Below are positions 23,835-62,473 of a stretch of 64,000 nucleotides of DNA, piece after piece (the first letter of the stretch is position 1; every line of letters starts with the position of its first letter). Both the position numbers and the translations under genes were made by a program. The notes beneath the pieces are model-generated. The model was not told where the DNA came from, ran no database searches, and was given only the letters and a program-made list of their open reading frames with translations. This DNA comes from a virus: IMG/VR virus record IMGVR_UViG_3300037087_000046, positions 1 through 64,000 of that record; one strand, given 5' to 3'.

Positions 23835-24091
23835 GACGCAATTCACTGATTTTGCCCAAAAATCCCTACTCTACATTTTCATATATATAACACATATTTT
23901 TCTAGTGGAGTAGAATAGGTAAAAATGATCTTAAATCAGTAATTTGATCAGGAATGGACTTTTTCTTAGCAAATTTACTGATCGTTTTACTGATCTTTTT
24001 GCTTTTTGGACTGACTCTCCCAAAAAACGATCAGGAATTGGGTTACTTTTCAGGTAAAATCCTGTTACCCAAAATCAGTGAGAAATTAGGG
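23835..24091 (+). repeat. 257-bp long inverted repeat, copy 1 (non-coding)
   Basis: Reverse complement of 62217-62473; first 74 nt identical, about 12 differences overall. Confidence 0.97.
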
Positions 24092-24092
24092 G

Positions 24093-24122
24093 TTGACAGC
24101 AAACAGTCTAACGTGTTAGACT
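24093..24122 (+). promoter_or_regulatory. sigma70-type promoter with overlapping palindrome
   Basis: TTGACA-N18-TAGACT; AGTCTAAC-GT-GTTAGACT dyad covers the -10. Confidence 0.85.
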
Positions 24123-24213
24123 ATTTCTGCCTAATGCTTCTTATGATGGGAGCAATAAAGGTTCTTGACCACATCAATGGTGAAGATTCTGGTGGAATGA
24201 TGTAAAATAATCC

Positions 24214-24243
24214 TTGACAACAGGGAAGATTTTGTGGTAGACT
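24214..24243 (+). promoter_or_regulatory. sigma70-type promoter
   Basis: TTGACA-N18-TAGACT. Confidence 0.75.
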
Positions 24244-24464
24244 TTATATCTAATGCCGGGACAGTGTCGCCTGGTGACCCCTGTGGGTCGCTCCCGCAGT
24301 AGTTTCTTTTAAAGGATACTAACATGGAAATCGAATACTTTTACCAACCTACACCCATTACGACACTGAAGGCATAAAGAATTATGCCCGTGAAATTTTT
24401 GGTAAGATTTTGGTTATTGATGGTAAAACAAACATCGATGTACCAACCCTGAAAGGATACTAAC

Positions 24465-24806
24465 ATGATTGAAGCAGAATGGGTAACAACAGCAGGGTTA
24501 CATGCCGCAGTATTGTTTGTCCATGACTCACACCGTTGTGGGTATGTGGAAGTGCCCCCCACAAGCCAATGGTATGGAGTAAATTATAATTGCGTGGATG
24601 TGGAAGTGCATGGTGGGTTGACTTATTCTGAGATGAGTGAGGGGACATACCCTACCAACAACCCCTGGAAATGGTGGTGGTTTGGATTTGACTGTGCCCA
24701 TTTGGGGGATGCAACTAAATACAATAATGAACCCTGGGACATTATGCGTTCTTTGGAATATGTAAAACAAGAATGTGAATACTTGGCGAGGCAACTAATT
24801 GCTTAA
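24465..24806 (+). CDS. conserved phage hypothetical protein (HGGLTY / GFDCAH family)
   Basis: CGYV...VHGGLTY...WWFGFDCAH. Confidence 0.75.
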   Translation: MIEAEWVTTAGLHAAVLFVHDSHRCGYVEVPPTSQWYGVNYNCVDVEVHGGLTYSEMSEGTYPTNNPWKWWWFGFDCAHLGDATKYNNEPWDIMRSLEYVKQECEYLARQLIA

Positions 24807-25650
24807 AGAAATCCCCATCCAAGATATTGTCCCCACGAAGCATCTTCTACGCCCCGTCAATAAAAAAAGCAAAGACTACATAGGAATTTTAGAGGCCATC
24901 CGAACCTCTGGATTTATGGGGGCAATTGATGTACGCCCAAATAAAACTAAATTCGAGGTGGTGGATGGTATGCACCGTTTTGAAGCAGCCAAGCAACTAC
25001 GGTTATCCTCTATACCCTGTAACATTTCTGAGCGTAGTGATGAAGATGTTATGCGATTGCAGATTGTCAAGAATCTGCATAAAGTAGAAACAACCCCCAT
25101 GCAGTATGCTAAACGGCTGTTGCAAATAAGTGAAAATAAACACTTGACAAACGCGCAACTTGGTGATATGATATGTAAGGACAAATCGTGGGTATCATAT
25201 ACCCTTCAACTTGCCCGTAACATCACTGACCCAGCACTGATTAAAATGATTGATTCCGGGCAGATTGAAGTTAATACGGCATGGATACTGGCACGAATTA
25301 ACCCGGTTACGCAAGAGTGGATTGACTATGCGCTTACGTTACCCAGGCATGAGTTCCTTGTGCGGTATAAGTCTTATCTTCGTAATGAAAGGGGGAAATT
25401 TGGCGCAAAAGAAAAAAAGGTATTTGAACCTGTAGCAACAATGCGTTGGATGAAGGACATCCTTAAAGAGATTAAGGAGCCGGATGAGATACTATCGTAC
25501 AGTATGTACGATAGTATGACACCGTTAGACGCAGCAGTAATGGCTCTAAAGTGGGTAGTCCACTTAGACCCTAAAAACCTAATAGAGCAAGAAAACAAAT
25601 TCCTTGCAAGAAAGACAGCAAATGACAAACGAAGTAGTCAATTACAATGA
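24799..25650 (+). CDS. ParB/Srx-like protein with HTH
   Basis: FEVVDGMHRFEA, NLHK, helix-turn-helix segment. Confidence 0.8.
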   Translation: MLKEIPIQDIVPTKHLLRPVNKKSKDYIGILEAIRTSGFMGAIDVRPNKTKFEVVDGMHRFEAAKQLRLSSIPCNISERSDEDVMRLQIVKNLHKVETTPMQYAKRLLQISENKHLTNAQLGDMICKDKSWVSYTLQLARNITDPALIKMIDSGQIEVNTAWILARINPVTQEWIDYALTLPRHEFLVRYKSYLRNERGKFGAKEKKVFEPVATMRWMKDILKEIKEPDEILSYSMYDSMTPLDAAVMALKWVVHLDPKNLIEQENKFLARKTANDKRSSQLQ

Positions 25651-26317
25651 TTTGGGAGTAACAAGCAGTTTCAGTGCAAACGATTTTTCAGCAGTTCCCA
25701 CCAACAGTTTCACCCCCCGTATTCAACTCAAAACAGCGGCATCCAATGAAGTGAAAAAGAAGGAGTTTCCGGCTGACAACTATGCGCTGATTTATTCCAA
25801 TCAGCCGCTTATTGACCTTGGGGAACGAGTTGATGTGCTGGTTCTTGCAAAGCGTCCAGTGGCTATGGATATGACAGACAAGACCCACCCCATCTTTGTT
25901 CATTACCCCAGGTGTGATGCAGAGGGGCAACCTACTGGTGAGTTTAAACGAATCATGGACAAGTCTGTTATGGAGATGACCATGAAGGCTGCAAACAAAA
26001 CCTGTTCGTTTGGCAATGAGTTCCTTCTTTACATCCCTGTGAAGAAAGTGTTTGCTACACTTGCTTGTACAAGTGTTTCCGCAAAGTGGGTTGCACCGTT
26101 TATTGAATCAAACATCCACAAGCCTGTTACGTTGTCCAGCGTGTTCCATGACAAGGGTGCAAATCCCTTCCAGAAGATGCACGTTACGGAATGCTCCACC
26201 CCGTTTGATGCACCGGATATGGGTTCTGCAAAGATTGAATTGCAAAAGTTCCTTAACCCGGTTGATGGCGTTGCTGAAGAAAAAGTTGAGGACGACGGTA
26301 ATACACGCGAGCGTTAA
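25622..26317 (+). CDS. putative single-stranded DNA-binding protein
   Basis: FTPRIQL motif, acidic C-terminal tail, replication-block context. Confidence 0.5.
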   Translation: MTNEVVNYNDLGVTSSFSANDFSAVPTNSFTPRIQLKTAASNEVKKKEFPADNYALIYSNQPLIDLGERVDVLVLAKRPVAMDMTDKTHPIFVHYPRCDAEGQPTGEFKRIMDKSVMEMTMKAANKTCSFGNEFLLYIPVKKVFATLACTSVSAKWVAPFIESNIHKPVTLSSVFHDKGANPFQKMHVTECSTPFDAPDMGSAKIELQKFLNPVDGVAEEKVEDDGNTRER

Positions 26318-26546
26318 TCTTGCATAGGTTGGCCCCTATGTATCAAGGCGGGTTTGACTATAGAGTGGATACCACTCGCTCCGGCTTATGTGCAACAAGG
26401 AATCAGAGAGCCTACTGCTTAGCCACCAGAGGGCGTTTTTCCGGGCATGTAGCATACTTGGAAAGCAACCCGAACACCACTGTAAAAGTGGTCTTGTAGT
26501 GCCCTGTAGTCGGGGTAACGGAGGCGGACTACTGCCGCCAGCAAAG

Positions 26547-26581
26547 CCACCCACCGGAATATCCGGTGGGTGGTATATTTT
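26547..26581 (+). terminator. intrinsic terminator-like hairpin
   Basis: CCACCCACCGGA-ATA-TCCGGTGGGTGG followed by TATATTTT. Confidence 0.75.
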
Positions 26582-27520
26582 AAGGCGAAAACATAATGGG
26601 TGAAGAAATGATTACTATTAACAAAGAGACTTATGACCAGTTAGTAGAGGACTCTAACATACTTAAGTGTTTGAGGGCATGTGGAGTAGATGATTGGGAT
26701 GGATGGGATGACGCAATCGATATGTCAGGGGTGAATGACTAATGCAAGATAAAGTAACCACCGATGTTGTAGCAATTAGTAAAGAAGAATATGAAGCACT
26801 GAAGGAACGCAGTAAATTCCTCACGACTCTTGAAAAGTTGGGTGTTGATAGTTGGGTAGGATATTCTGTGGCGTGTGAGGTAAAAAAGTAATGCGTCTCA
26901 TCAAGATTAAGAATACCCATAAGAAGACAGTGTTGATTGTTGATGCTGATTCTATTATGGCAGTGGAAGAACGTGATGGGTTTGAAGACAGCCCTCCTGG
27001 TGTGGATATTATGATGCGGGATGGGACATTGTTTCCCCTGGAATATGTTACCTTTAAGAGTGTAGCACGATGCTTGTAAACATTCTTACTGGCCCCGTGG
27101 TGAATTGGACAATGTTTGTTACGGAGTGCCAACGGGTATTGGGGCACAGTCCAACGCGTATCTTGGATTGCCTTGGTATCAAAACTGAAAGCCCGTTGGC
27201 ACTGTTACTTACCATCCCGGTAAGTAACAAAGAACAGAAGGCTTCCCTTAGTATCCTAAAAGAATCTAAACTTGACCACTACTACCTAACTATGTTGATG
27301 ACTTGTGAGAAGCATGAGTATCCTGCAAACTTAGCCGAGGTGACTCAGCTAAGAGTACACCATGTTGAAGGTGATGATGAATGTGTGGCATTCATTACAG
27401 GGTCGATGAAGGATTGGATAGAGACTATTATCATCATGGAACGTGATGATAAACAGGTAAAGAATTTTAAAACTCTGGCTCTACAACAACTAAAGATGCT
27501 TGATTACTACGAGGTTCTCA

Positions 27521-29368
27521 ATGGCTGAAATAAAAGTTCGAGTAGGTAATAGCCGTATTCCAATTCAAGTAGAAGAACGTGGCTCTCGCCTATTCCTTCA
27601 TTTTGGGTACAACCCACAACTTATTAAGGAAGTAAAAGGACTTGCTGGGGCAAAATGGCACCCGGAAGAAAAAGAGTGGTCAATCACTAAAAACCAGCGG
27701 AATGATTTTCAACTACGATGGATGCAGTGGGCAGCATTGGATGCTTCCAATAGGGAACCTATTGGAAATCCCTTCCATCGTTATGACGAGGATGTTACTG
27801 GGTCATGGGAAACAACCCGGTCTTTGTATCAGCATCAAAAGGATGCTGCCCTACACGTAGCACAGCGTAAGTATGGTATTCTGGCATCTGAGATGGGTTG
27901 TGGGAAGTCCTTGGTAGCGATTGACGTTGCGGAGAAGGTTAAACCAGCCAACGCGTGGTACGTAGGCCCACGGGCAGGCGTAAAGGCTTTCTCAAGAGAG
28001 TTGGTGAAGTGGGGCTGCACCGTACAGTTCAAGATGATGACTTACGAGGGTCTAATCAAGGTTCTTAAAGATTGGGATGGTACCAATGTTCCTCAGTATG
28101 TTGTGTTTGATGAGAGCAGCCGAATTAAAATTGCCTCAGCACAGCGTAGTCAAGCAGCAAAGTATTTGGCAGATGCAGTCCGTGAGGCATGGGGTGATGA
28201 AGGTTATATTGTCCTTATGTCCGGTACACCTGCACCTAAATCACCTGACGATTGGTGGCACCAATGTGAGGTTGCTTGTCCTGGGTTTATTAAGGAAAAG
28301 AACTCCAATGACCTTAGGGCACGCCTTAGTCTGACGGAAGAACGAACAAGTATTTCTGGACAAACCTACAGGCACCTGATTACATGGCTGGATGATGAGA
28401 CTAAGTGCGCCCTATGTGGGGCACACAAGGATGTACATCCAGACGACCACCCGTTCAAACCATCCGTTAATGAGGTTAGTAAGTTGTATCGACGGTTGAA
28501 TGGATTGGTGCTGGTACAGTTCAAGAGAGATTGTCTTGACCTTCCTGAGAAGACTTACGAGATTGTCCGTCTAACCCCTACACCAGAAATACTTCGTGCT
28601 GCAAAATTGGTTGAAGCAAAAGCCACAAGAGCAATAGAGGCACTTACATGCCTTCGTGAATTGTCAGACGGATTTCAATATGCGTTTGAAGAAGTAGGAA
28701 ACGAGCCGTGCCCAAGTTGTAAGGGAGAGGGTTCAAAACTATCTGAGTGTCCAGGGGAAGGAGTTATTACTTGTGATTATTGTTCAGGGGAAGGCACCGT
28801 GCCAAGATACACCCGCATCGTTGAAGAATTGGAGACTCCGAAAGATCAAATCTTCCTTGACGAGTTGGACGCGCACCTTGATGGTGGCCGTCTGGTTGTA
28901 TGGGGAGGATTTACTGGGACGCTTGACCGATTGGTTAAGATGGCTCACCAAAACGGATGGGCGACCCTCCGGGTGGATGGTAGAGGTTACGCGGGTGAAT
29001 CTGAAAAAGGTGAAGTAATTGACTCAGATGTGTTGCTTGATGCAATGGATTTAAGCAACCCTAAGTATCAAGAACTTCTTGACATTTATCCCAGAGTATG
29101 TTTTATTGGTAATCCTCAAGCGGGTGGTATGGCTCTCACGCTAACCGCATCTCCTACCGCGTTGTTCTACTCAAACTCTTTCTCAGGAGAAGCACGTATC
29201 CAGGCTGAAGATCGTATCCACCGTGTTGGGATGGATAAGAACCGAGGTTGTATTATCAAAGACATTGTTATGCTTCCAACTGACCAATTAGTGTTGGATA
29301 ACCTGCTTAAAAAGAAGCGACTTCAGTCGCTTACACTGGGGAAGATTTTTAATGGAAACAGAGAATAA
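27521..29368 (+). CDS. SNF2-like SF2 helicase with Zn-finger insertions
   Basis: EMGCGKS, FDES, MSGTP, QAEDRIHRVG; CPSCKGEG/CDYCSGEG. Confidence 0.9.
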   Translation: MAEIKVRVGNSRIPIQVEERGSRLFLHFGYNPQLIKEVKGLAGAKWHPEEKEWSITKNQRNDFQLRWMQWAALDASNREPIGNPFHRYDEDVTGSWETTRSLYQHQKDAALHVAQRKYGILASEMGCGKSLVAIDVAEKVKPANAWYVGPRAGVKAFSRELVKWGCTVQFKMMTYEGLIKVLKDWDGTNVPQYVVFDESSRIKIASAQRSQAAKYLADAVREAWGDEGYIVLMSGTPAPKSPDDWWHQCEVACPGFIKEKNSNDLRARLSLTEERTSISGQTYRHLITWLDDETKCALCGAHKDVHPDDHPFKPSVNEVSKLYRRLNGLVLVQFKRDCLDLPEKTYEIVRLTPTPEILRAAKLVEAKATRAIEALTCLRELSDGFQYAFEEVGNEPCPSCKGEGSKLSECPGEGVITCDYCSGEGTVPRYTRIVEELETPKDQIFLDELDAHLDGGRLVVWGGFTGTLDRLVKMAHQNGWATLRVDGRGYAGESEKGEVIDSDVLLDAMDLSNPKYQELLDIYPRVCFIGNPQAGGMALTLTASPTALFYSNSFSGEARIQAEDRIHRVGMDKNRGCIIKDIVMLPTDQLVLDNLLKKKRLQSLTLGKIFNGNRE

Positions 29369-30397
29369 ATGCGGAGCATTTATGTGTCCCGTAGTGCAGA
29401 CTGAAATAGCGCGTTCAGTTGGTAAGATTATTGACGAAGAGATTATTAAGAAACTCATTGAACTACTGGGGAATGCAAATGCCAACAGAGAGTGAAATAA
29501 TAGAATATGCCACTATCCACAATCAAGTTGAATTGGCTGAAGAAGTGTTTTCTCTAAAAGCAGAAAACAAGGAACTCCGTGAAGAACTTGAGAAGTATGA
29601 GGGGGACAACAAATGATTTATCTGATTATGGCATTTGTTATTTGTTATGAGTGGTGGGTAATTTTGAAATACCAGACGGAAGCAACCCACTACAAAACAC
29701 TGTATAACCAAGCAAGATTGGCACGGTACAAGAATGAATGAACCAATTTATCACAATGCAGATGGGGATGTAATATCTGAACAGGATGACGAAGATATTG
29801 CTACCCAAAGGGAACTTCTGGGGGTGAAAGATGTTTGACCACTTAGTTAGACAGCCTGAAGTTGGGGGGTATTCGAGTGCTGATGGGAATGTATACAAGA
29901 CCAATATATTTGACTACCCCAGAACAAGTGATGAAGCAAACCAAGTATCCCTACAGAATATCATTGACCGATTGGAACGGTTGGAACGAACATTGTTTGG
30001 GAGACAACATGACTGACGAAAAAGTAGAAATATTAGCCAAAATGGTGGTGTTATGTTGTCTGTTTATATGTTTTACATATTGCGCCACACACGGAGGTCA
30101 TTAGATGAAGTTTTTCATTGGAGTATGTATCCTATTCGCGTTGCTCATAGGATGCACAGCCACACGGCAGATGACACTTTCCACACCTGATGGTGTCTCT
30201 GCAACTATGGTAGAAACAGCATCACTACCAATTATTTACCCAGATGCTACCTTGTCCTGCACAGACGTTAAGTATGCAGACGGCACAACAAGTAGAACCA
30301 TCACAGTTAAAACAAGCACTGAGTCCACTACGGCGCGTTGGTCTGCTACAACTGCAATCGCTATTGGGTTGGCTACAGTTCTTGTGGGTACAGGTCT

Positions 30398-30829
30398 ATG
30401 AAATTTTGCAAGGCGGGCGTATTATTTTACCCGGACTTGAAGGAAATTAGTCCGGGATGGTGGGAGTTACAGAAGGATTATACATTAGTGGTTGGTAAGG
30501 ACCAAATAGATGTTCCAAAGGGATTCCAGTGTGATTTAGCAAGCGTACCAAGCGGCCTTCAGTTCTGGTATGGAACACCAGGGTCTACACAGAATGCAGC
30601 AGCAGGTCTTTGCCATGATAAGTTGTATACTAACCACATGTGTGTGGATATACCCATCACCCGAAAAGAAGCAGATGATATTTTGTACAACATCCTCGTC
30701 ATGTTTGGGCATAGCCGATACACTGCCCTTAAAATGTGGTTGGGTGTACGAATGTTTGGAGGAAGCCATTGGAAATCCCTATCTGCGAAATATACCGCCC
30801 GGATGAAATCAATGGGAGAGACCCAATAA
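30398..30829 (+). CDS. DUF1353-like protein
   Basis: VPKGFQCDLASVP, HDKLY, ADDI, VRMFGG. Confidence 0.8.
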   Translation: MKFCKAGVLFYPDLKEISPGWWELQKDYTLVVGKDQIDVPKGFQCDLASVPSGLQFWYGTPGSTQNAAAGLCHDKLYTNHMCVDIPITRKEADDILYNILVMFGHSRYTALKMWLGVRMFGGSHWKSLSAKYTARMKSMGETQ

Positions 30830-31512
30830 CTCGTTTTGATGTTCAAGACATCATGGAGTCGATTGAACAGAATGGTGTTATTGAACCTGTAGTAGTCATG
30901 CCTATAACACCCGAATTTCGGGCGTTAAACGACATAGCCGCCACCTACAAGTGGCGGCTTGTCTGTGGCTTCCGTAGAACCTTTGCATGTAACTTGTTTC
31001 ACACAACTGTCAACGCGGTAATAAGCGAAACAGTTACAGATGAGACAGCGCGCGTTTTCAATGTAGTTGAAAATATTGAACGTAAGAATCTGAACATCCG
31101 GGAAGAATCAAAAGCAGTACAAACGCTCTTAGACAATGGCTTCACCAAGGAAGAAATTGCTAAGAAGTTGACCCGCCATACATCATGGGTGGAATCCCGA
31201 AGTAGATTCACTGAGTTACCTGAAGAAGTCCAGGACGATATACTCATTGGGATTATACCTCTTAATAGGATAGTTTCCCTTGCCAACACATATCAGAACA
31301 AGGGTGAAAAAGAACTACTGGCTAAGATTGAAAAGGTGATTGAAGCCCAGAACGCAAGGGAACAATGCACTCGCACTAAAAAAGAGATGTCGGACATGAT
31401 GCTCAAGTTGCATTGTAAGTTTGGCCCGTCTATAACGGATAAGGTTCTCAGTTGGGCGATGGGTGATTTGGGCACCGAGGCATTCAATATGTGGCTCAAG
31501 GAGCAGCAGTGA
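30736..31512 (+). CDS. second ParB-like protein
   Basis: SIEQNGVIEPVVV, LVCGFRR, ENIERKNL, HTH; start approximate. Confidence 0.85.
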   Translation: MVGCTNVWRKPLEIPICEIYRPDEINGRDPITRFDVQDIMESIEQNGVIEPVVVMPITPEFRALNDIAATYKWRLVCGFRRTFACNLFHTTVNAVISETVTDETARVFNVVENIERKNLNIREESKAVQTLLDNGFTKEEIAKKLTRHTSWVESRSRFTELPEEVQDDILIGIIPLNRIVSLANTYQNKGEKELLAKIEKVIEAQNAREQCTRTKKEMSDMMLKLHCKFGPSITDKVLSWAMGDLGTEAFNMWLKEQQ

Positions 31513-37552: not shown

Positions 37553-38473
37553 ATGCCGGGGACACTTGTTGTTATTATAGAGAAAGAGGAAATAGTGCGC
37601 ATACCCAAACAGTTGAGTCCAACCAGTATTAGCCTTTTCTACGAAGATAGGCGTAGGTTCTATTTAAAATACTTGGCCGATTCGCGTTGCCCGCGCGACC
37701 CGCAGACCCCGCCGATGGCCTTGGGCAGCAGCTTCGATGCCCATGTCAAAAGTTTTTTGGCTGGATATGACCTAGAAACCATTTTCAAACAGCAAGTTGA
37801 CGAACCTATGCGCGAGTGGGCGTGGACGAACGGTGCCCGTGCGTTCAGGCTATACCAAGATTCAGGTGCCCTTGAAGCATTGGAGAAGGAAATGGATCAA
37901 TTTTCAATTGCTCCAAGGTTTGAATTTGATGTGGTAGGGCATGTTAATGGTGTTCCTCTTGGCGGCAAGCCCGATTTATGGTATGGCCACCGGGGTGGAG
38001 CACATGTGCTACTTGATTGGAAATGTAACGGTTATTGCTCCTCTCGCCCCATGTCCCCCAAGAAGGGTTATATCCATCGGTTCGACACTAAAATGGCACA
38101 TAAAAATTGTATACCTGTTGAATACAAAGGGTACTTAATAAATTCCGCCGCACCTATGAACACCGTTGACACGTCGTGGGCGAACCAGTTGTCGATTTAT
38201 GCCTGGCTACTGGGGGAATCTATCGGGTCAAACTTTGTCGTAGGAATAGAGCAACTCTGTGGGCCAGACTGTCTGTGTGTTAGCCATCGTAGTCTGATTG
38301 AACCTGAATATCAGGAGGCGTTGGTACGTAAGATGACTTATATGTGGCACCTGATACAACAAGGGCCACGGCACATCTTTGATACCGTGTCAGAAGAGGA
38401 ATCAGAGGAAGAGTGTGCAGTGCTGGATAAATATTATTTGTCCTTTCAAGGTGAGTATGCTTTTTTGTCTTGA
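37553..38473 (+). CDS. PD-(D/E)XK exonuclease (RecB/Cas4-like)
   Basis: LSPTSI, GSSFD, GKPD, LDWK, QLSIY. Confidence 0.75.
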   Translation: MPGTLVVIIEKEEIVRIPKQLSPTSISLFYEDRRRFYLKYLADSRCPRDPQTPPMALGSSFDAHVKSFLAGYDLETIFKQQVDEPMREWAWTNGARAFRLYQDSGALEALEKEMDQFSIAPRFEFDVVGHVNGVPLGGKPDLWYGHRGGAHVLLDWKCNGYCSSRPMSPKKGYIHRFDTKMAHKNCIPVEYKGYLINSAAPMNTVDTSWANQLSIYAWLLGESIGSNFVVGIEQLCGPDCLCVSHRSLIEPEYQEALVRKMTYMWHLIQQGPRHIFDTVSEEESEEECAVLDKYYLSFQGEYAFLS

Positions 38474-49255: not shown

Positions 49256-50008
49256 ATGATTGGTTATAAGGCATTCAACAAAGATTTGACTTGTAGAGGC
49301 TTTCAGTTTTATATTGATGGGCGTTGGCATAAATTGGAAAATGACAACCCACTTGTATTGTGTGAGAATGGGTTCCACTTTTGCGAACAGCCCTCTGGAG
49401 TTTGGGCGTATTACAGTGAATCTGACACTCGTGTTTTTAAGGTGGATACAGACATTGTGTTGGAAATGCCAAGTGAAGCGGGGGCAGATTTTAAACGTGT
49501 GTGTCGTAAAATAAAATTGCTTGAGGAACTAACTCCAGGTGGCAACTGTAACACGGGCGACCGAAACACGGGCGACCAAAACACGGGCGACCAAAACACG
49601 GGCGACCAAAACACGGGCGACCAAAACACTGGCGACCGAAACACGGGAAACTCTAACACGGGAAACTATAACACGGGAAACTATAACACGGGCCACGGAA
49701 ACACTGGCGACCAAAACACTGGCCACCGAAACACTGGCGACCAAAACACGGGACACGGAAACACTGGATACGGAAATGCAACTGACAAACACACTGGTAA
49801 TTTCTGTGTAAAGCCCCCCAAGCCCATTTGGTTTGATAGGGTATTCTTTGGGGAGGAACCCCCAGCATACAAATACACTGAATTACTTAGTCTTCTGGGT
49901 CAAAATACCCCGTTTGATTATGCCGAATGGGCTTGGCTACCTAATGCCACAACAAAAAAAGTAAAGGCACTGCATGAAGCACATATCGCACGGAGGGGTG
50001 CTAAATGA
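49256..50008 (+). CDS. phage protein with GYKAF...GFHFC N-domain and (GxxNT)n pentapeptide repeats
   Basis: MIGYKAFNKDLTCRGFQF, CENGFHFC, about 16 NTG[DNH]x units. Confidence 0.8.
   Translation: MIGYKAFNKDLTCRGFQFYIDGRWHKLENDNPLVLCENGFHFCEQPSGVWAYYSESDTRVFKVDTDIVLEMPSEAGADFKRVCRKIKLLEELTPGGNCNTGDRNTGDQNTGDQNTGDQNTGDQNTGDRNTGNSNTGNYNTGNYNTGHGNTGDQNTGHRNTGDQNTGHGNTGYGNATDKHTGNFCVKPPKPIWFDRVFFGEEPPAYKYTELLSLLGQNTPFDYAEWAWLPNATTKKVKALHEAHIARRGAK
49549..49776 (+). repeat. 15-nt coding tandem repeat (AACACGGGCGACCAA-like)
   Basis: visible period-15 array. Confidence 0.9.
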
Positions 50009-50526
50009 ACACTTGGCTAAAAGTAATTAGACACTGTTGTGGAGATGAAACAGAATTTATGGTGGACTGGATTAGGGGGCTAATCCTTAACCCGGAAGAA
50101 AATCGTCCCTACCTGTATTTCTGGGGGCCTGAAGAATGTGGTAAGTCTACTATCCACTATGCAATTGGATTATTGCTGGGTATAGGACAGTATAGGAGTG
50201 TAAGTAGTATGCTAAAGAGTCCTCACCAGATAAACACATTTAGGTATTTGTTCAATACAACACTGTGTGTCGTGGAAGAGGGACATGGTGATATTGCACA
50301 ACTTACTCATTATGTCCAAGACAGCCACATCAGGCTGCACTTGGCGGGTTCAAAACCAATCAACGTGCTAAACCGCACAAACTGGATTGAGTGTAGTGAG
50401 ATTCATAACCCCCCACCGTTTGCAAAAGTGTTTACGGTAGAACCACTGGTTGAAATTATCCCACATAAAGAAATGATGCAGATGTTGGAAGAAGAGAAAG
50501 ATGCTTTTCTGGAATTTATTATTTGA
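50005..50526 (+). CDS. stand-alone SF3/D5-like NTPase module, paralog of the primase-helicase C-domain
   Basis: NPEENRPYLYFWGPEECGKS..LCVVEE..TNWIEC versus NPYEHLPYLFFYGNENTGKS..LCVVEE..THWIQC. Confidence 0.75.
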   Translation: MNTWLKVIRHCCGDETEFMVDWIRGLILNPEENRPYLYFWGPEECGKSTIHYAIGLLLGIGQYRSVSSMLKSPHQINTFRYLFNTTLCVVEEGHGDIAQLTHYVQDSHIRLHLAGSKPINVLNRTNWIECSEIHNPPPFAKVFTVEPLVEIIPHKEMMQMLEEEKDAFLEFII

Positions 50527-53102: not shown

Positions 53103-53115
53103 CGGAGTATACTGT

Positions 53116-53637: not shown

Positions 53638-53877
53638 GATGGGGGCAATTAAATTTGGCTGCGTGTCCAGTGAGACACATTTAGGTGGTAGTTGGTGTTC
53701 CGATAAATGTGATTTATATAATGATATTTGGGGTGTGTGTACTGAAGATTGGGACTTACAACGTGGATATAATTGCCCTATTTTTGGGTACCCAGCAGGG
53801 GTGTATACGTTTGATTTAGCCATTAAACGATGTTGCGTGTGTGGATTTATCGAATGCAGCGCCGAGGAAGCCCTGAA

Positions 53878-54177
53878 ATGAAACCTTGCCCATTTTGTAG
53901 TGGAGAAGGACATATTTGGCGGGACGCTTTTATTGTCTGTTATGATTGTGGTGCTCTCACTAAGAGGGGGCATTCCTCCCTAAAATCCGCCGTTAATGGT
54001 TGGGATAGTGGTAGGGTGATGCACATCCAGGATGCCCTACTGCCCAAGTATACCAAATGGGGTGAAGAAAAGCGTCCCAGGGGCTGGGAGATGATTGAAA
54101 ATCTCAAGAAAAGAATTGTTGGTGGGGCTAATTTGTCCCCTTATGAGTCACTTGTTAAGTGGTTAGTTTATGTATGA
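53878..54177 (+). CDS. Lar-like (restriction alleviation) Zn-ribbon protein
   Basis: MKPCPFCSG...CYDCGA....AV..W. Confidence 0.55.
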   Translation: MKPCPFCSGEGHIWRDAFIVCYDCGALTKRGHSSLKSAVNGWDSGRVMHIQDALLPKYTKWGEEKRPRGWEMIENLKKRIVGGANLSPYESLVKWLVYV

Positions 54178-54490
54178 GCAATCTGGAATGAATTTTTGGG
54201 TAGCAACAAAGTTAGTTAGGGTGGGATAGTGAACCTTTATGACTTTCTCAAAAAACGGCGTCAGGATTTTGATCAGTTTTAGTAGGTGAGTCAGTGATTC
54301 CACCAAAAGTAAAAAAGAATTTAACCAAATAAGTGGGCTTGTTAGTATTACTTACCCAAATGGTTTTGTCTTGTTACCGGAAAACTAACAACCTACCCGT
54401 TAAAATAACTTGCATTTTGGTCCCCAGAACGTATCCTTATATATGGGCACAAAAATACCCTAATTTTGGTCAAAATGAGGGTATGCCAAA

Positions 54491-54515
54491 ATAAAGCCTC
54501 TCAGGAGGCTTTTTA
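54491..54515. terminator. terminator-like hairpin in the convergent intergenic region
   Basis: AAAGCCTC-TCAG-GAGGCTTT plus T run. Confidence 0.6.
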
Positions 54516-56436: not shown

Positions 56437-57150
<714 letters not shown>

Positions 57151-57424
57151 TTCCTACCTCTCTCCCGCTTGTGCGGCCTCCGATGTGGTTCCTCTTGTGG
57201 TGTAGGTGTACGTTTTGGTACACTCTATAAAGTGTGTCATAATGATACACTTTTAATGACGACTTGCTGTGTCGTTATTCCTAAGTCCAGCAAATTCAAT
57301 TTTTTTAAAGATTCTGTGCATGATCATTCAAAGATTGCATTTTGCAAGGTCGTCAAATATTTGACACATGATTAGTCAAAATATTGACACAGATGTTCCA
57401 AAACGAACACCGAAAGAACCATAA

Positions 57425-57440
57425 GACAAGAATCGTGCCA
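57425..57440 (-). promoter_or_regulatory. sigma54-like site (imperfect -12)
   Basis: TGGCAC-GATTC-TTGTC. Confidence 0.35.
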
Positions 57441-57679
57441 AGATTATACGGTTAAAACCATCCTTCCCAGAAGAAGATGCACACCCCGGCGATAAAGAAA
57501 AGGAGACCATAGAACAGATAATCAAATCGTTTAACGCCATTGATAAGAAAAAGGATAATCGCGATGATAAAAAACGGTGTAGAAATCATTTTACCACCTC
57601 CCAAGGGCAATCATAAATGCCACAAAAACATCAGGATGAAAAGCAAATTCGGGTCGTTCGAGAAGCAATTGTTCGGGTT

Positions 57680-58159
57680 TCATAGTAATTCGCTCGCATA
57701 TCCGTTGAAGTATTCCCCACGAATCACAGAACGCAGTTCTGAGAAAGAACCAAAATTAAATTCTGACTGGTGTTCCCGGATATACTCAATGCGTTCGGGT
57801 GGAGTAAAGCAATCCCTCCAAACATCGTTGGCCGCTTCACATTCCATCTCGCTGAATTTGTCTGCATCCAGAATTGGATAATCGGAAAGGGACTTTTCGA
57901 TTTTGCACGCGATAATAAACTCTTCTGTGTCCAGGCGCACATATATTTCTTCAATCCATCCGCACGCCCAATGATCGTACCGTTCTACCCGGACGTTTTC
58001 GGATTCTCCTCCAAGCATTTCGAGTGCAACCTGGAAGTTGCATTCTTCCCAAATTTCAGAGTCACGGGAGCGTCCGGCAACCCCATACCAGTCTTGGTAT
58101 TCGCTATCGTCTCCGGCAAAATTTGTGCAACCTGCCATTTGTTCTTTTCGTGTTTTCAT
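57680..58159 (-). CDS. conserved phage early hypothetical protein
   Basis: RSRDS...NF...HWACGWIE...DYPILD; AAGGA RBS. Confidence 0.65.
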   Translation of the reverse strand: MKTRKEQMAGCTNFAGDDSEYQDWYGVAGRSRDSEIWEECNFQVALEMLGGESENVRVERYDHWACGWIEEIYVRLDTEEFIIACKIEKSLSDYPILDADKFSEMECEAANDVWRDCFTPPERIEYIREHQSEFNFGSFSELRSVIRGEYFNGYASELL

Positions 58160-58984
58160 GGTATCAGTCCTTTTTTCATCCAGAAAGTTTTTCCACAACT
58201 TGCACAACAAACTACATCGGAGTCAAGATGTAATTCTGCCCCACACTCGCCTCTTGCTTCCGCCTCCTTGCGGATTTCATCGAGTATGATTCTACAAAGT
58301 GAATCTCTTTTTTTATCATTCAAACCGGACAATTTATGTCCTTTGCTCTTGATAAGTTTGTCACGCTCTTCGGTTGAGTAAGAGGGAACAAATTCCGGCT
58401 TTTCATTTCCCATATAGCGATAATGACCAAGTCCACCAAGGGCGTGATATTTTTCGTTCCATAGAAAACAGAGAACTCTGTTAGTTGTATCACCTGAATC
58501 TTCGCGCTTCCGCCTCTTCAATGGGATAATCATAATCCGGCTTGCGGATAGGCGGTTTTCGGTAGGGTTTAGAAAGTTTCTTTAGCAGTGCTTCAGAAGG
58601 CACGCCAAAGACTTTATAAACCCCGTTAGGGGTTGTGATATTCATTTCACAACCTCCAAGTCAGTATAGCCAATTTTTACAAGTTCATCCAGCAGGTCCT
58701 GATACTCCGGGGGTGTAGCGCGTCTAAGCCGAAGATTTTTTGAGCATGCGCCATGCTGAACGTCGCCCTCTGGAAATTTGCGGAATTTAACACGCTGCAA
58801 TCGTTTCCAGTTATCCATCCAATTAGGTGGATTGATATGTTTTTCGATTCGTCGATACATGCGGAGTGCCTCTTTAAGCGGAGATTGCCCATTGAATATC
58901 AAGAGGGCTGATTGTGGTTTTCCAAGTTCCGTATTTAAAACTCCTGTATGATGATTCCGCGTTCGTCGGTTGTGAATGTTACTT

Positions 58985-59518
58985 TCATACCATCTTCCCC
59001 TCTAGGGTAAATTCATACCCATTCGCTTCGATTGTTTCAATGATACATTCCCGGCTTGTCAGATATTCATATTCCCGGCGCAAGATTGAAAGATACTGTT
59101 TCCCAAGATCATGGATAAGCCCATAGTTAAGGTCTTCGATTTTCTCTTCGATTTCCTCTTGACAAACTCTTAAACATTTCCGATAACCGCGATGATAATC
59201 AATATTTTCAACCCGCGCCAGTTTATCAAGATGGGGTTGTATTTTGTCAAGAAATACTTTGGCCAGTTTGTAGGTATCACACTCCATTCCATGTTCTTCA
59301 AGTATTTTTTTAGCCGTTCCGTAGGGATAATCACAATTCAGACTAATGGTTCCACGAAATGTGTTAAACTCCGTGATTTTAACGCCGACACGTTCCGCGT
59401 CCTCGTAAACGTATTGCCACCAGTCATAATCGGCGTTATCCCATTTTTCAATGATTTTATCCTGAACTTTTTCCGATAATTCGTTGAACTGGTAAACCCT
59501 CGTTGTTATTTCTCTCAT
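58985..59518 (-). CDS. conserved phage early hypothetical protein
   Basis: VYQFNELS...EYEYLTS...IEANGYEFTLEG. Confidence 0.7.
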   Translation of the reverse strand: MREITTRVYQFNELSEKVQDKIIEKWDNADYDWWQYVYEDAERVGVKITEFNTFRGTISLNCDYPYGTAKKILEEHGMECDTYKLAKVFLDKIQPHLDKLARVENIDYHRGYRKCLRVCQEEIEEKIEDLNYGLIHDLGKQYLSILRREYEYLTSRECIIETIEANGYEFTLEGKMV

Positions 59519-59519
59519 G

Positions 59520-59741
59520 TTAGAGTACCTCATCAAAAAACGATTGTGGTTTTGTGCCGCATTCCCGCCCATCAAGCCACTTGTTAATATGGCGGGTGGT
59601 TGTTACGCTCCATTTGTGTTCCGTGCGGTAGCAAGTGTCATCATTCATACAGATTGCAACAGGTGTTTGATAAGATACGAACACGGTCCCAAGTTTTGTA
59701 ACAACTTCTGTTTGATTTGCTGCAAGTAGTTTAATTTTCAT
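59520..59741 (-). CDS. small phage early protein
   Basis: VSYQTPVA...WSVTTTRHINKWL. Confidence 0.7.
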   Translation of the reverse strand: MKIKLLAANQTEVVTKLGTVFVSYQTPVAICMNDDTCYRTEHKWSVTTTRHINKWLDGRECGTKPQSFFDEVL

Positions 59742-59927
59742 GGTTTAAAACCCTTTCATAAGTTTTTGTGCATCCAAGATGTTTTGCCTCATACCATAAA
59801 ACCTTTGTTTCATAATGTTCTCCTTTATACTATTCGGTATTGTCCAGCATCATTCATTTCTGCGATGCCATAATGCACCATGCGCAATACATTGTCAAGC
59901 ATTATTTTATCAAATGTTATCCACATA

Positions 59928-60104
59928 TTAGTTACTCCCTAAGAGTTTTACCGCTATCCTCATGGCGCGGTTTTCATACGCCTTAATATCCGCTATACGC
60001 CGTATTGCTAATGGCATCTCTGCCATTGCTTCAGGCATGCCTTGGAGCATGCGCAACACCATACATCTGTTCTTAATATCATGCGCAATTTTGAGTCTGG
60101 ACAT
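59928..60104 (-). CDS. small hypothetical protein, first gene downstream of the sigma54-type promoter
   Basis: AAGGA RBS, then ATG at 60104. Confidence 0.5.
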   Translation of the reverse strand: MSRLKIAHDIKNRCMVLRMLQGMPEAMAEMPLAIRRIADIKAYENRAMRIAVKLLGSN

Positions 60105-60153
60105 TTTGTGGGTTCCTTTCGTGTCCTTCCCCCGCACCCCGCACCCACTACTA

Positions 60154-60169
60154 AGCAAGTGGCGTGCCA
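60154..60169 (-). promoter_or_regulatory. sigma54 (RpoN) -24/-12 promoter
   Basis: TGGCAC-GCCAC-TTGCT, exact consensus and spacing. Confidence 0.7.
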
Positions 60170-60196
60170 AGTTCTAAACAAAGTTAAGTGCAACAA

Positions 60197-60209
60197 AATC
60201 AATGCTTTA
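60197..60209 (+). promoter_or_regulatory. IHF-type binding site
   Basis: AATCAA-TGCT-TTA matches WATCAANNNNTTR. Confidence 0.55.
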
Positions 60210-60231
60210 CGTAAAATAGAAAAACCGCATT

Positions 60232-60318
60232 GTGTCCAAAGAAAAAGACACTGTGCGGCAAGGAAAACGTAGAACGTTGAAGTTGTTGTACTTAGGTGTG
60301 TCTAAAAATAAAGACACA
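60232..60318. promoter_or_regulatory. two dyad sites GTGTC-N10-GACAC (putative enhancer/UAS)
   Basis: 60232-60251 and 60298-60317, both with A-rich spacers. Confidence 0.55.
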
Positions 60319-60367
60319 AAATGCGTTATTCCAAAAGTTTGGACACATTACAGGGCTTGCGCTACAA

Positions 60368-60447
60368 TGGCACGCTGGCACGCTGGCACGCTGGCACGCT
60401 GGCACGCTGGCACGCTGGCACGCTGGCACGCTGGCACGCTGGCACGC
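60368..60447 (+). repeat. tandem array (TGGCACGC)10
   Basis: ten perfect 8-bp units plus a partial unit. Confidence 0.97.
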
Positions 60448-60630
60448 TGGCGCAATAAAACATTCATTGTTAGCATACTAATACGTCTTTTGTCATTATA
60501 CTTACTGTTTTTGTTTTCACAAGGGGGTGGGAGGGTTATTTTTGCTTACCAATTGGGTTTTGGCACGGGAAATGCTCCTACACCCTATTTGCGGATAGCC
60601 GGAATTTTTTAAATGGCAATAACTAAATGG

Positions 60631-60813
60631 TTAGCGTGGAATCTCCATCCAGTGTGTTACACCTTTAATCACTAAGGACTCTTCAAAGTCGGGGTGGATT
60701 AAATAAAAATAGTCCTCTTCTGAATATGCCCCAACATAATACCATGCCCCACACTTCAGTAGGACATCATCCCCTATGAAGGGTAAAACATCATTTACGC
60801 TAATCCAGTTCAT
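60631..60813 (-). CDS. DUF551-like protein
   Basis: MNWISVNDVLP...VTHWMEIP. Confidence 0.75.
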   Translation of the reverse strand: MNWISVNDVLPFIGDDVLLKCGAWYYVGAYSEEDYFYLIHPDFEESLVIKGVTHWMEIPR

Positions 60814-61741
60814 AGTTTTTCTTTCAGTGTCTTGTTAATGGCACAGAGTGTATTATTTATTAGCCAAAGGGAAACAACAATACAGCATAGTTGGAACTCA
60901 ATCATCATTTAGGCTCCTTCGGCATGGGAAACCAGTATTCTACTTCAACGTCTGAACCATATTCAGTTTCTTCCCAGTATTCACCATTCCATTTACCATA
61001 ACACGCTTCCCCTGATTCAGTACTGATGATAACCTGTTTACCAATAGCGGGTTGTTTTTCTTGTGCATCAATCCAAGTGTTCATCTCGAATAACTAACCC
61101 AACAAACACACAGGTTTTCAGTTTTATACCAAGGCAGGTCAACGTTATTATTTTTGCACCATTCTCTCATCCCCCCGTTCTGCCAATCCAGTTCTTCATC
61201 AAACCAAGAGCACTCAAGAAACCACGGGCGACGAACCCTGAGCCATTCTTTCACATCCCGTATTGTACCCTTAAAAGATTCCCCGATGTATGATTTTTGA
61301 AGCACGGGGTAGTCAACGTCACTTATTTGTACACAAACCACGGTACATTCACCATTACTATTGCCCCAAAACAGCATTCTGTTCATCTCGAAGCCTTTCA
61401 TATTCCTGTCCAAGTGGGGTCAGAACTTTACGTGGTGTAGCCTTACCATAATCATAAATCAGAACGTGGTCATCACAATCATGTACGGCCTTGTAATATG
61501 TTACGTTATGCTTATAAGGTGTACAACCAAAATAGAATAGAAAAAGTATGCATGTAAAATAACTAATAACAACAAAAACCTTAAATATCAAGCGGTGTAA
61601 TCTCCATCCAGTTGTTTTAGTACCGATTCATGTTTCTATGACTAAATGTCCAAGTTGTTCCCTCTGTAACAACAATCTGTCGGATTGCCCCACATATACC
61701 CGGCTTTTTCATAATACACTGTCGGGAACGCGTCTCGGTGT

Positions 61742-62146
61742 TTACAGGTCATTTAAAGCTTCTTTCTTATTAGTCCCCTGCACAGTGCCAAGAACCAACT
61801 CAATAGCAATTTTCTCTGCTACAATGGTGATGCACCGTTCAATTATATCAGACATAATTTTACCTGACATGTGCAGACCCACCAAATCATGGTCAGTGAT
61901 TTCAACCACATGGTCTTTCCCATTGAAAGTAAACTTATACACCAAAGACATGTAAAAATCTTTATGGTATTCATAAAGATTACCCAAAATCAGGTCTGGA
62001 GTATAAGCAGTCAACACAAGATTCCGCATTATTTTGTCTTTTAGGGAATCTAACTCATTCAAACTGGACGAAGTGTTAGGGGTATGGATGTCTACCTTTT
62101 GTGGATAATTTGGTGCAGTGTGTACGTTATAGAAGTTATTAAACAT
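61742..62146 (-). CDS. hypothetical protein, first gene after the promoter at 62176-62205
   Basis: AAAGGA RBS, promoter upstream. Confidence 0.6.
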   Translation of the reverse strand: MFNNFYNVHTAPNYPQKVDIHTPNTSSSLNELDSLKDKIMRNLVLTAYTPDLILGNLYEYHKDFYMSLVYKFTFNGKDHVVEITDHDLVGLHMSGKIMSDIIERCITIVAEKIAIELVLGTVQGTNKKEALNDL

Positions 62147-62175
62147 GTCTTGTCCTTTCGCAAACTACGAGATAG

Positions 62176-62205
62176 ACTATAGCACGCTACAATCTAATTT
62201 GTCAA
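62176..62205 (-). promoter_or_regulatory. sigma70-type promoter with imperfect palindrome
   Basis: TTGACA-N18-TATAGT; AGATTGTAGC-GT-GCTATAGTCT. Confidence 0.8.
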
Positions 62206-62216
62206 GTCCAATTTTG

Positions 62217-62473
62217 CCCTAATTTCTCACTGATTTTGGGTAACAGGATTTTACCTGAAAAGTAACCCAAATCCTGATCGTTTTTTGGATGAGTCAGTGC
62301 CAAAAAGTAAAACGATCAGTAAAACGATCAGTGATTTTGCTAAGAAAAAGTCCATTCCTGATCAAATTACTGATTTAAGATCATTTTTAGCATTCTAGCC
62401 CACTAGAAAAATATGTGTTATATATATGAAAATGTAGAGTAGGGATTTTTGGGCAAAATCAGTGAATTGCGTC
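62217..62473 (-). repeat. 257-bp long inverted repeat, copy 2
   Basis: reverse complement of 23835-24091. Confidence 0.97.

Follow-up and report, generated by a model that had tools for sequence, protein, structure and literature searches.

An inverted pair of 257-bp non-coding modules as a candidate duplicated replication origin in an uncultured peat soil phage

A 257-bp non-coding module was present twice, in opposite orientations and 38 kb apart, in the 82,834-nt contig of an uncultured phage from peat soil. The left copy was located beside the primase-helicase and ParB genes and the right copy at the junction between a block of small early genes and the late block encoding packaging and structural functions. 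Each copy combined a set of repeated short words, an easily melted AT-rich stretch and a cluster of GATC sites, a word depleted genome-wide. We interpret the module as a duplicated protein-docking site, probably a replication origin, that doubles as an upstream promoter region, and give this reading a probability of roughly 0.5. Coordinates refer to the window, the whole stretch of 64,000 nt (Table 1).

Structure of the repeat pair

An earlier note had described the copies as reverse complements of each other, about 95% identical and with the first 74 nt unchanged, and both observations were reproduced. BLAST aligned the left copy with the reverse complement of the right at 95.3% identity over 258 columns (E about 1e-113), and the identical run at the start of the pair (23835-23908) was 74 nt long. 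A repeat search returned the pair as three collinear pieces of 82 nt (98%), 90 nt (96%) and 96 nt (92%), while alignment placed twelve differences between the copies, ten substitutions and two one-base indels, with uninterrupted identity in runs of 74, 54 and 55 nt. BLAST of the whole contig gave a copy number of two. Homology ended sharply at the module edges, approximately 250 nt being kept at 95% identity while the flanking promoters had diverged.

Misassembly, which the note had named as the possible undoing of the pair, was ruled out with contigs from two environmental sequencing runs. The shared parts of the repeat had about twice the depth of the flanks, and the variable part occurred as two variants with depths of 21.4 and 19.0 compared with 17-18 for the flanks, these values being taken from assembled contigs in which depth is flat per contig. 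Environmental contig records stop within the repeat, with an end at 23864 and a start at 24062. The ends of the phage contig share a 99-nt overlap, as expected of a circularly permuted or circular genome.

Coding status and transcription signals

Both copies were non-coding, as originally proposed, when the ORF starts were re-read and the ORFs compared between copies. The ORF at 23389-23859 has its real start at the ATG at 23763, which is preceded by GGAGG, and the ORF at 23954-24205 within the left copy is disrupted in the right copy by indels. The sole match of the first inward gene was a PHROG of unknown function, and no small initiator gene was found beside either copy.

A promoter scan recovered the inward TTGACA-N18 promoters beside both copies, including the palindrome over the -10 element, which was perfect (8+8) at the left promoter and imperfect at the right. 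The proposal that each copy occupies a point of divergent transcription held for the left copy, located exactly between two divergent promoters, but not for the right copy, where no outward sigma70-like promoter was found by the scan. Outside the right copy a palindrome and then a strong terminator precede the first late gene.

Table 1. Positions of the module copies, their internal elements, the adjoining transcription signals and the genes of interest in the window
Feature	Position	Strand	Basis or remark
Left copy of the 257-bp module, non-coding, dyad-closed	23835-24091		Repeat search, BLAST; DNA fold z -2.85
Right copy, inverted, 95.3% identical to left	62217-62473		Repeat search, BLAST, alignment
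AT-rich, easily melted stretch, left copy; candidate unwinding element	23866-23925		Least stable windows start at 23866 (40 nt) and 23876 (60 nt); top 0.02-0.04%
AT-rich stretch, right copy	62373-62441		Least stable windows start at 62402 (40 nt) and 62373 (60 nt); top 0.04-0.12%
Iteron and GATC cluster, left copy; five GATC inside (A/C)CTGATC-type words, tandem at 23977 and 23989	23927-24032		Word counts
Iteron and GATC cluster, right copy; five GATC	62276-62382		Word counts
Outward promoter TTGACT-N18-TAGACT of leftward operon (first gene from 23763, primase-helicase further on)	23790-23819	-	Promoter scan
Inward promoter TTGACA-N18-TAGACT, perfect 8+8 palindrome over -10	24093-24122	+	Promoter scan
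Second, tandem promoter of the type at 24093	24214-24243	+	Promoter scan
Inward promoter TTGACA-N18-TATAGT, 10 nt from right-copy edge	62176-62205	-	Promoter scan, alignment
Operator-like palindrome, 14-nt arms, contains TAGACT, 8 nt outside right copy	62482-62513		Sequence reading
Terminator-like hairpin, strong, 14 pairs and T run, just before first late gene	62755-62786	+	Scan
Dam-family N6-adenine methyltransferase	15338-15817	-	PF05869, 44.3 bits (cut-off 28.1)
Primase-helicase, 894 aa, candidate module binder	19553-22237	-	DUF5906 NTPase domain; PHROG DNA primase
ParB-like protein 1, second gene inward of left copy	24799-25650	+	ParB_N and HTH_ParB
ParB-like protein 2	30769-31512	+	Weak KorB-domain match
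PD-(D/E)XK nuclease	37595-38473		
First late gene, putative small terminase	62805-63368	+	Weak PHROG hit; homologue adjoins large terminase gene in relatives

Module anatomy

Eight to nine words of the ACTGAT(C/T) type occurred in each copy in both orientations, and the module is closed by the outermost pair, a perfect 12-nt inverted repeat with arms 8-10 nt inside the ends. Of the 57 genomic occurrences of ACTGAT/ATCAGT, ten fell within the two copies, which together span 514 nt (P 3e-12). The word cores (approximately 52 nt) had no differences between the copies compared with about 2.6 expected, which by this estimate is weakly unexpected. Dyad symmetry was apparent on both strands (z of -3.0 to -4.3 as RNA and -2.85 as DNA), and the least stable windows of 40-100 nt in the copies ranked within the top 0.02-0.12% of the genome. 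Palindromes of the parS type (14-16 bp) were absent from the module, which contained only asymmetric words and GATC/TGATCA.

Multiple short words with an adjoining AT-rich stretch are the arrangement of iteron-type origins. Local minima of the cumulative GC skew coincided with both copies, but the skew could not be separated from gene orientation, which it tracks here, and it is therefore not independent evidence for an origin. The earlier note had offered either twin origins or a flip-flop/amplification device, and its origin half is the best candidate given the iterons, the AT-rich stretch, the GATC cluster, the position near the primase-helicase and ParB genes and the skew minima, while the device half gained no support. 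Each copy would act in cis as a complete docking site for a DNA-binding protein encoded by the phage, and the origin module would be present once by the replication genes and once at the early/late junction. The direction of the flanking promoters counts against an origin, as they fire away from the module, unlike those of promoter-primed origins of the T7 or T4 type, and so does the lack of a small initiator gene next to the copies.

Transcription control alone is a possible, if rather unlikely, explanation of the same anatomy. A phage regulator, such as a ParB/KorB-like protein that loads close to its own gene, would use the words as operators or activator sites, and the early promoters at the two junctions would be coordinated with no role in replication. 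The distance from the end of a copy to a -35 box is 1-13 nt for the left copy and 10 nt for the right, the outermost word precedes the three -35 boxes by 11, 21 and 23 nt, which is roughly whole helical turns, and the gene for ParB-like protein 1 adjoins the site in all nine genomes (this phage and its eight relatives). Short words are also shared between the two junction regions of the relatives, such as the tandem TTGATTTGATTTT words in one of them (G002), and an 18-nt palindrome that occurs 48 times in the genome of one relative points to a global DNA-binding regulator in the phage group. This explanation, however, accounts neither for the exceptional instability of the AT-rich stretch nor for approximately 250 nt kept at 95% identity beside diverged promoters, and the missing outward promoter at the right copy is a further point against it. 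The resemblance to ParB-parS and KorB-OB systems is that a parB-like gene adjoins the site, but the palindromic operator of 13-16 bp (14-16 bp for parS-type sites) is absent from the module. A docking site with a role in replication would itself affect transcription, since the module ends near the -35 boxes and the same bound protein would thus also control the adjoining early-type promoters.

GATC sites and the Dam-family methylase

GATC was about 5.5-fold depleted in the genome, with 45 sites observed compared with expectations of 245 (Markov model) and 310 (base composition). The two copies contained ten of the 45 (P 2e-13). The five sites of a copy were all common to both copies and were not randomly placed but fell within the repeated word, and CTAG, which is also avoided in the rest of the genome, was present in the module as well. 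None of the eight relatives encoded a homologue of the Dam-family enzyme and none showed GATC depletion. Since GATC belongs to the repeated word, in a genome that is otherwise purged of GATC and carries a Dam-family methylase gene, methylation could shield these sites or regulate how they are used.

A more elaborate, methylation-gated origin pair can be envisaged, although we consider it unlikely. Ten GATC sites would be kept in the two iteron copies alongside the phage's own Dam, and methylation of the words would time the binding of one phage protein. Bound modules would pair and loop the 38-kb early/replication segment, and the start of replication, the shut-off of early promoters and perhaps occasional flipping would be coupled in a single switch.

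Clustered GATC sites are found at P1 oriR and Escherichia coli oriC, both Dam-dependent, and P1 encodes an adenine methylase, Dmt. A very unlikely alternative is a pac site of the P1 kind, where clustered TGATC(A/G) hexamers would be read by terminase and gated by Dam methylation. On one strand, three of the five GATC sites in the left copy and four of five in the right belong to TGATCA or TGATCG. A Dam-family enzyme is encoded by the phage, and the putative small terminase gene starts 332 nt downstream of the right copy, a position compatible both with packaging and with an origin. The overlap of the contig ends mentioned above would also agree with packaging of this kind. The left copy, however, belongs to the replication region and has the opposite orientation, with 38 kb separating it from the terminase genes, the homologous structure at the ParB-primase junction of the relatives lacks GATC, and we know of no arrangement of two opposed pac sites. 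An excerpted source describes seven TGATCA/G hexamers with Dam sites in P1 pac (PMC10028697). The likeness extends to GATC hexamers clustered in a cis site of approximately 160-250 bp in a phage that encodes an adenine methylase. The pac site of P1 is single and inside pacA, in contrast to the two inverted copies here, one of them in the replication region.

Second strain, related phages and segment inversion

A strain that is approximately 90-95% identical, represented in other peat samples (runs X3 and X4), retained both copies even though its flanks carried a 409-nt deletion and a replaced stretch. The right outer flank next to the module was the same apart from one change in 30 nt, and the left flanks were the same as well. 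Concerted evolution between the copies, which had been put forward as a check, was not seen. The copies differ at twelve positions and the second strain had left-type letters at all five copy-distinguishing positions listed, which indicates no homogenisation since the strains split.

The 2-micron plasmid and plastid inverted repeats bracket large segments, the former with a dedicated recombinase, and flip-flop repeats are normally kept identical. A comparable device here would recombine the copies and invert the 24.1-62.2 kb segment to give two functional genome isomers. Such an inversion would break no gene, as had been claimed, and both junctions would stay points of diverging gene orientation. 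The identical runs are long enough for homologous recombination, the phage encodes a PD-(D/E)XK nuclease, and phages with segments that invert between inverted repeats have been reported, including the jumbo phage Matilda with invertible terminal segments (partial text of preprint 10.64898/2026.10.21.760668). We nevertheless give a flip-flop or amplification device very little credence. The lack of a site-specific recombinase, first remarked on for the window, applied to the whole 82.8-kb contig, as PF00239 and PF00589 had no match to a serine or tyrosine recombinase in six frames at E up to 1, in searches whose controls matched in 13/14 and 14/14 genomes. This absence and the unhomogenised copies speak against such a device, and the relative orientation of the replication and structural blocks was the same in all eight relatives. 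FLP/FRT of the 2-micron plasmid, plastid inverted repeats and Matilda resemble the pair in placing inverted repeats around a large segment that can flip with no gene cut, but their repeats are 0.6-25 kb long and essentially identical, compared with 257 nt at 95% and no recombinase here. With the module as a docking site, homologous recombination between the copies may occasionally flip the 38-kb segment as a by-product rather than a purpose.

Inverted pairs of at least 100 nt were found in none of the eight relatives, and no conservation of the module sequence was detected among 39 related loci. In five of the eight, part of the intergenic region between ParB and primase that corresponds to the module's locus recurred elsewhere in the genome as an inverted second copy of 26-76 nt, and in three of these five it was the sole long-range inverted match. 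Palindromes of the ATCAAAT type were also present in the relatives. The second copies are short and could be no more than promoter or operator words in common use. The pattern suggests that a ParB-primase control region with a second inverted site is a recurring feature of the phage group and not a one-off duplication.

Further copies were absent from plasmid and phage records, from IMG/VR and from the genomes of 185,579 species, the search of genomes and viral contigs having used an inverted-repeat-plus-gap pattern (0 matches), and metagenome contigs gave chance matches only. These results also bear on another reading, in which the pair has no function for the phage and is either a recent neutral duplication or a selfish miniature inverted-repeat element, and which we rank as the least probable explanation. 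The 257-bp length with sharp homology borders, the 12-nt inverted repeats 8-10 nt from the ends and the presence of GATC and CTAG, as newly acquired DNA might show, are consistent with it. Target-site duplications were not seen at the borders, however, and the bases flanking the two copies differ. The confinement to two copies, their survival in a strain with large flank indels and the placement of GATC within the repeated word likewise argue against it.

Comparison with known two-origin systems

Herpes simplex virus (HSV) origins, namely oriL and the two oriS copies in the inverted repeats on either side of US, sit between divergently transcribed genes. In satellite phage P4, the alpha primase-helicase binds both ori and crr, the latter a helper element of direct repeats a few kb from ori. 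Excerpted sources describe two oriS copies in inverted repeats of HSV-1 (PMC12543377), oriL and oriR of Bacillus phage SPP1, both bound by G38P (PMC5737612), a second origin in ICP1 (PMC7145576) and ori and crr in P4 (PMC9942202).

The likeness to HSV oriS is that one origin module occurs twice and inverted, with boxes for the origin-binding helicase around an AT-rich spacer in a dyad, as far as the excerpt goes (PMC12543377). The oriS copies, however, are located within kilobase-long repeats that are kept identical, whereas the candidate module repeats 257 nt at 95% identity, in a bacteriophage with unrelated proteins. SPP1 has two short distant regions, one initiator and iterons (AB boxes) beside an AT-rich unwinding element, comparable to the words and AT-rich stretch that were read here from the DNA letters; its oriL is inside gene 38, G38P is not a primase-helicase and no GATC cluster is described in the excerpted text (PMC5737612). 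P4 is similar in having the same short iterons at two distant loci with a large primase-helicase encoded nearby, but the present phage has full inverted copies 38 kb apart and a primase assigned by DUF5906 and PHROG primase hits.

To our knowledge, very few uncultured phages have a known replication origin. The module described here is a sharply bounded candidate: it occurs twice in the genome, its repeated word is defined at 7 nt, it includes a putative unwinding element, and the genes for three candidate binders are close by. The avoidance of GATC genome-wide compared with its retention in the module, together with a phage Dam that has no counterpart in the eight relatives, makes this genome a natural experiment. 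It poses the question of how a phage may reconcile escape from restriction with a cis site that would need the restricted word.

Structure and genomic setting of the inverted pair

Alignment of the two copies of the repeat, hereafter the module, gave 95.3% identity over 258 columns, including the identical first 74 nt that had been described from the sequence, and the copies differed at 12 sites (10 substitutions and 2 one-base indels). The module occurs only twice in the 82,834-nt contig. Homology falls off sharply at both edges, and what the flanks have in common is limited to promoter and operator words whose family is also found at other places in the genome. The left copy contains a single open reading frame, which a frameshift disrupts in the right copy, so neither copy can encode a protein and their earlier description as non-coding holds. 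The possibility of a misassembly was examined in two metagenome runs carrying the phage itself (X1 and X2). Long contigs from both runs end 30 nt inside the repeat, depth of the shared repeat parts was 30-47 versus 14-18 in the flanks, and the variable part was present as two variants at flank-like depth (21.4 and 19.0 in X1; 18.3 and 15.5 in X2). The pair is therefore not an assembly artefact, and the cis element that the module represents is real and sharply delimited.

The final 99 nt of the contig (82736-82834) exactly repeat nt 12-110, indicating that the genome is probably complete, circular or circularly permuted, at ~82.7 kb. IMG/VR lists the contig as linear with 80% completeness. Nt 1-11 match nt 44-54 in reverse complement, apparently an artefact of the contig end. 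Genes carried on the contig include those for a family-A DNA polymerase, an SNF2-type helicase, an 894-aa primase-helicase, two ParB-like proteins, a Dam-family methylase, NrdD, ThyX, an RNA ligase and a PD-(D/E)XK nuclease, as well as large terminase, portal, scaffold and major head genes. Five blocks were delimited from open reading frames and GC skew, and the two junctions of divergent orientation are each occupied by one repeat copy. One run search placed the sequence in peat metagenome runs (11 rows from 8 studies), all available as contigs; two of the rows are possible source samples.

Coordinates of the repeat copies, gene blocks, promoters and Dam-family gene
Feature	Position	Strand	Remark
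Left copy	23835-24091		Reverse complement of right copy
Right copy	62217-62473		Inverted
Late genes	62.8 kb across contig end to 12.5 kb	+	
Block with primase-helicase	12.5-23.8 kb	-	
Replication and nucleotide-metabolism block	24.1-54.2 kb	+	
Small-gene block	54.8-62.1 kb	-	
Leftward promoter	23819-23790	-	TTGACT-N18-TAGACT; on left side of left copy
Rightward promoter	24093-24122	+	TTGACA-N18-TAGACT; on right side of left copy
Second rightward promoter	from 24214	+	
Inward promoter of right copy	62205-62176	-	
PF05869 Dam-family methylase	15338-15817	-	Profile match

The earlier note had placed each copy at a point of divergent transcription. An inward promoter was found at each copy, but a divergent promoter pair was found at the left copy only, with none directed outward at the right. 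The left copy sits exactly between the leftward promoter and the first of the rightward ones. The outer side of the right copy has just a palindrome with 14-nt arms, followed by a strong terminator ahead of the first late gene. Sites within 2 mismatches of TCTAACGTGTTAGA numbered five, four in the window (24107, 35024, 38484 and 49214) and one at contig position 76268; the four window sites overlap the -10 of TTGACA-N18-TAGACT promoters and so form a promoter and operator family. A module acting as a pure control platform, with no role in replication, is a reading that we consider somewhat unlikely.

Several other features of the contig were recorded. The 330 nt that separate the right copy from the first late gene (window 62474-62804) hold two terminator-like hairpins, possibly representing one or two small RNAs, and a 71-nt part of this interval (contig 62633-62703) is directly repeated at 67126-67196 with 85% identity. 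Repeat arrays were grouped at window 60368-60447, 56446-56928 and 49511-49816, comprising a tandem (TGGCACGC)x10 array and two coding arrays with periodic repeats of 9-15 nt. A 173-aa protein encoded at window 50005-50526 (+) has a weak DUF5906 match, can be aligned within the primase-helicase genes found in relatives, and appears to be a paralogous piece of the helicase domain. Among the 13 loci holding major-capsid relatives (L079-L091), seven with 33-54% identity fall in Planctomycetota genome bins, some within megabase chromosomes. The top match (50%) comes from a 30-kb contig assigned to a methanogen bin; these bins are a weak hint of the host group and of prophage relatives.

Module anatomy and GATC content

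Words of the ACTGAT(C/T) type are present in the module in either orientation, among them the tandem ACTGATCGTTTT ACTGATC(T/G)TTTT, and the two outermost, 215 nt apart, make up a perfect 12-nt inverted repeat. In duplex stability, the stretch 23866-23925 falls within the lowest 0.02-0.04% of genome windows. Single-strand folding was better than that of shuffled sequences for both strands of both copies (z of -3.0 to -4.3 as RNA and -2.85 as DNA), and since it was equally good on both strands it is the outcome expected from DNA dyad symmetry and not from a strand-specific RNA. An RNA gene was rejected, as an Rfam search of both 3.3-kb loci at E up to 1 returned one sub-threshold match only, to SprX (22.7 bits versus 80, E 0.13) at ~62605-62790, beyond the right copy. 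Pfam and PHROG scans of the genes adjacent to both copies identified no DNA-binding protein except the ParB-like protein ParB1.

The contig contains 45 GATC sites; a second-order model predicts 245 and base composition alone 310. Ranked by depletion, the first four of the 256 tetranucleotides (found/expected) were AGCT (10/213), CTAG (12/165), GATC (45/245) and GGCC (69/180), a strong signature of restriction avoidance. Of the 45 GATC sites, ten fall in the two copies, which together span 514 nt (binomial P 2e-13). Every one of the ten is part of the repeated word, and both copies retain all five of theirs. Three of the 12 CTAG sites are also in the copies. GATC depletion was absent in all eight relatives compared as whole genomes; AGCT, CTAG and GGCC were counted in this phage only. 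The phage also encodes a PF05869 protein, members of which we take to methylate GATC, and no homologue was found in any of these eight relatives at E up to 1e-4. The gene follows a row encoding a kinase, PP2C, vWA and an isochorismatase-like protein.

The module in a second strain

Runs X3 and X4, from other samples in two studies, contain 0.43 and 0.42 of the sampled words, their contigs are mostly 90-99% alike, and they thus carry a diverged strain (roughly 93% identical). Each run has a contig that crosses from the right outer flank, with 1 change in 30 nt, to the module, and one X3 contig links the left outer flank to the module start. The latter lacks 409 nt (window 23362-23772) and with them the gene that opens the leftward operon (23389-23763). 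A second X3 contig extends from ~23880 through the module and left inner promoter into a replaced stretch and rejoins at 24359; compared over window 24101-24359, X3 and X4 have different sequence in place of 24102-24358. The presence of the module in the diverged strain indicates that the pair predates the strain split, and the deletion and replacement beside it indicate that the flanks are variable while the module is kept.

Concerted evolution between the copies had been proposed as a check. The second X3 contig was left-type at all five copy-distinguishing positions visible in it (23909, 23910, 23917, 23919 and 24007; 5 of the 12 differences), and there the copies are without homogenisation. 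An X3 loose end before 23835 that might join the right outer to the left inner flank was rejected; the block beside the joint in this record is only 222 nt (from ~23880), so the loose end most likely comes from another, unlisted contig.

These results bear on inversion of the intervening segment, one of the functions proposed earlier as a flip-flop or amplification device. The copies share identical runs of 74, 54 and 55 nt, over which homologous recombination is possible. In the four runs compared, contigs end inside the repeat, flanks are unphased and each contig has one depth figure. The reported absence of a site-specific recombinase extends to the whole contig, where resolvase and integrase families had no match in six frames with positive controls, the copies are 5% diverged, the copy-specific letters are common to the other strain and block orientation is constant in relatives. 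A dedicated flip-flop is therefore very unlikely, and the module lacks those defining features of such systems that could be tested. A selfish or neutral duplicate is also most improbable. A mobile-element search with an inverted-repeat-plus-gap pattern gave 0 matches in genome contigs and 0 in viral contigs, and those defining MITE features that could be tested are missing from the module.

Comparison with related phages

The primase-helicase identified 39 loci in IMG/VR with 36-51% amino-acid identity. No conservation of the module sequence was detected in these loci (blastn at E up to 10 and nhmmer), blastn of 23700-24200 gave zero matches in plasmid and phage records, and a 24-nt exact scan of IMG/VR gave 0 matches. 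A 19-nt iteron scan of metagenome contigs returned 18 stretches sharing nothing with the phage beyond the pattern, and these were rejected as chance matches.

Whole records were compared for eight of the 39 loci (G001-G008; G009 and G010 were left out), with a sensitive intergenic search for G001, G002, G004 and G005 and whole-genome blastn at E up to 1e-4 for G003 and G006-G008. All eight have a common gene order and the same relative orientation of replication and structural blocks, and in all of them the ParB and primase genes diverge from an intergenic region. In G001, G002, G004, G005 and G008, the five in which it was read, this region is locally dyad-symmetric and AT-rich at its centre, and it has short words of its own, often ATCAAAT-type palindromes. 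No inverted pair of at least 100 nt was present in any of the eight, but a short inverted second copy of a part of this intergenic region was found in five: G004 (76 nt, 78%, at a gene-orientation switch point), G003 (46 nt, 85%), G001 (39 nt, 87%), G008 (30 nt, 93%, 263 nt upstream of a small-terminase homologue) and G002 (26 nt inverted and 27 nt direct, including tandem TTGATTTGATTTT words). In G003, G004 and G008 it was the sole long-range inverted match in a whole-genome self-comparison. G005, G006 and G007 gave no second copy, the last two by whole-genome blastn only. The two-site arrangement thus recurs in the group with genome-specific sequences, and the 257-nt, 95% pair is peculiar to this lineage. 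The 84-kb genome of G002 (L047-L051) has 48 occurrences of an 18-nt palindrome of type TTTGATTTAGTAAATCAA (up to 2 mismatches), a word absent from the four other genomes tested; a phage protein may use it as a binding site throughout the genome.

Proposed function

We propose that the pair is a duplicated protein-docking module, most likely an origin that doubles as the upstream region of early promoters, and give this reading a probability of about one half. The observations behind it are the words, the unwinding-prone stretch, the dyad closure and persistence in the second strain, together with a position between -35 boxes and adjoining the primase-helicase and ParB genes. A protein, with ParB1, ParB2 and the primase-helicase as candidates, would bind the module, replication would start there, and GATC methylation may matter to it. 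The module has the sequence-level features of an iteron origin, and the twin-origin reading advanced previously is plausible.

Phage P4 combines an ori/crr with a primase-helicase. By layout the closest known system is the HSV oriS pair, in which binding boxes surround an AT-rich spacer and the arrangement is present as two inverted copies (PMC12543377). The phage system nearest to it is SPP1, where a single initiator binds both oriL and oriR, and iterons and an unwinding element are found at each (PMC5737612). For ICP1, use of a second origin in the late stage of infection has been reported (PMC7145576). The P1 pac site has clustered TGATCA/G hexamers (PMC10028697), to which GATC-containing words of the module may correspond; a P1-like pac site is a highly doubtful reading of the pair. 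New in this phage are the full inverted duplicate, the retention of GATC against genome-wide avoidance and a lineage-specific Dam.
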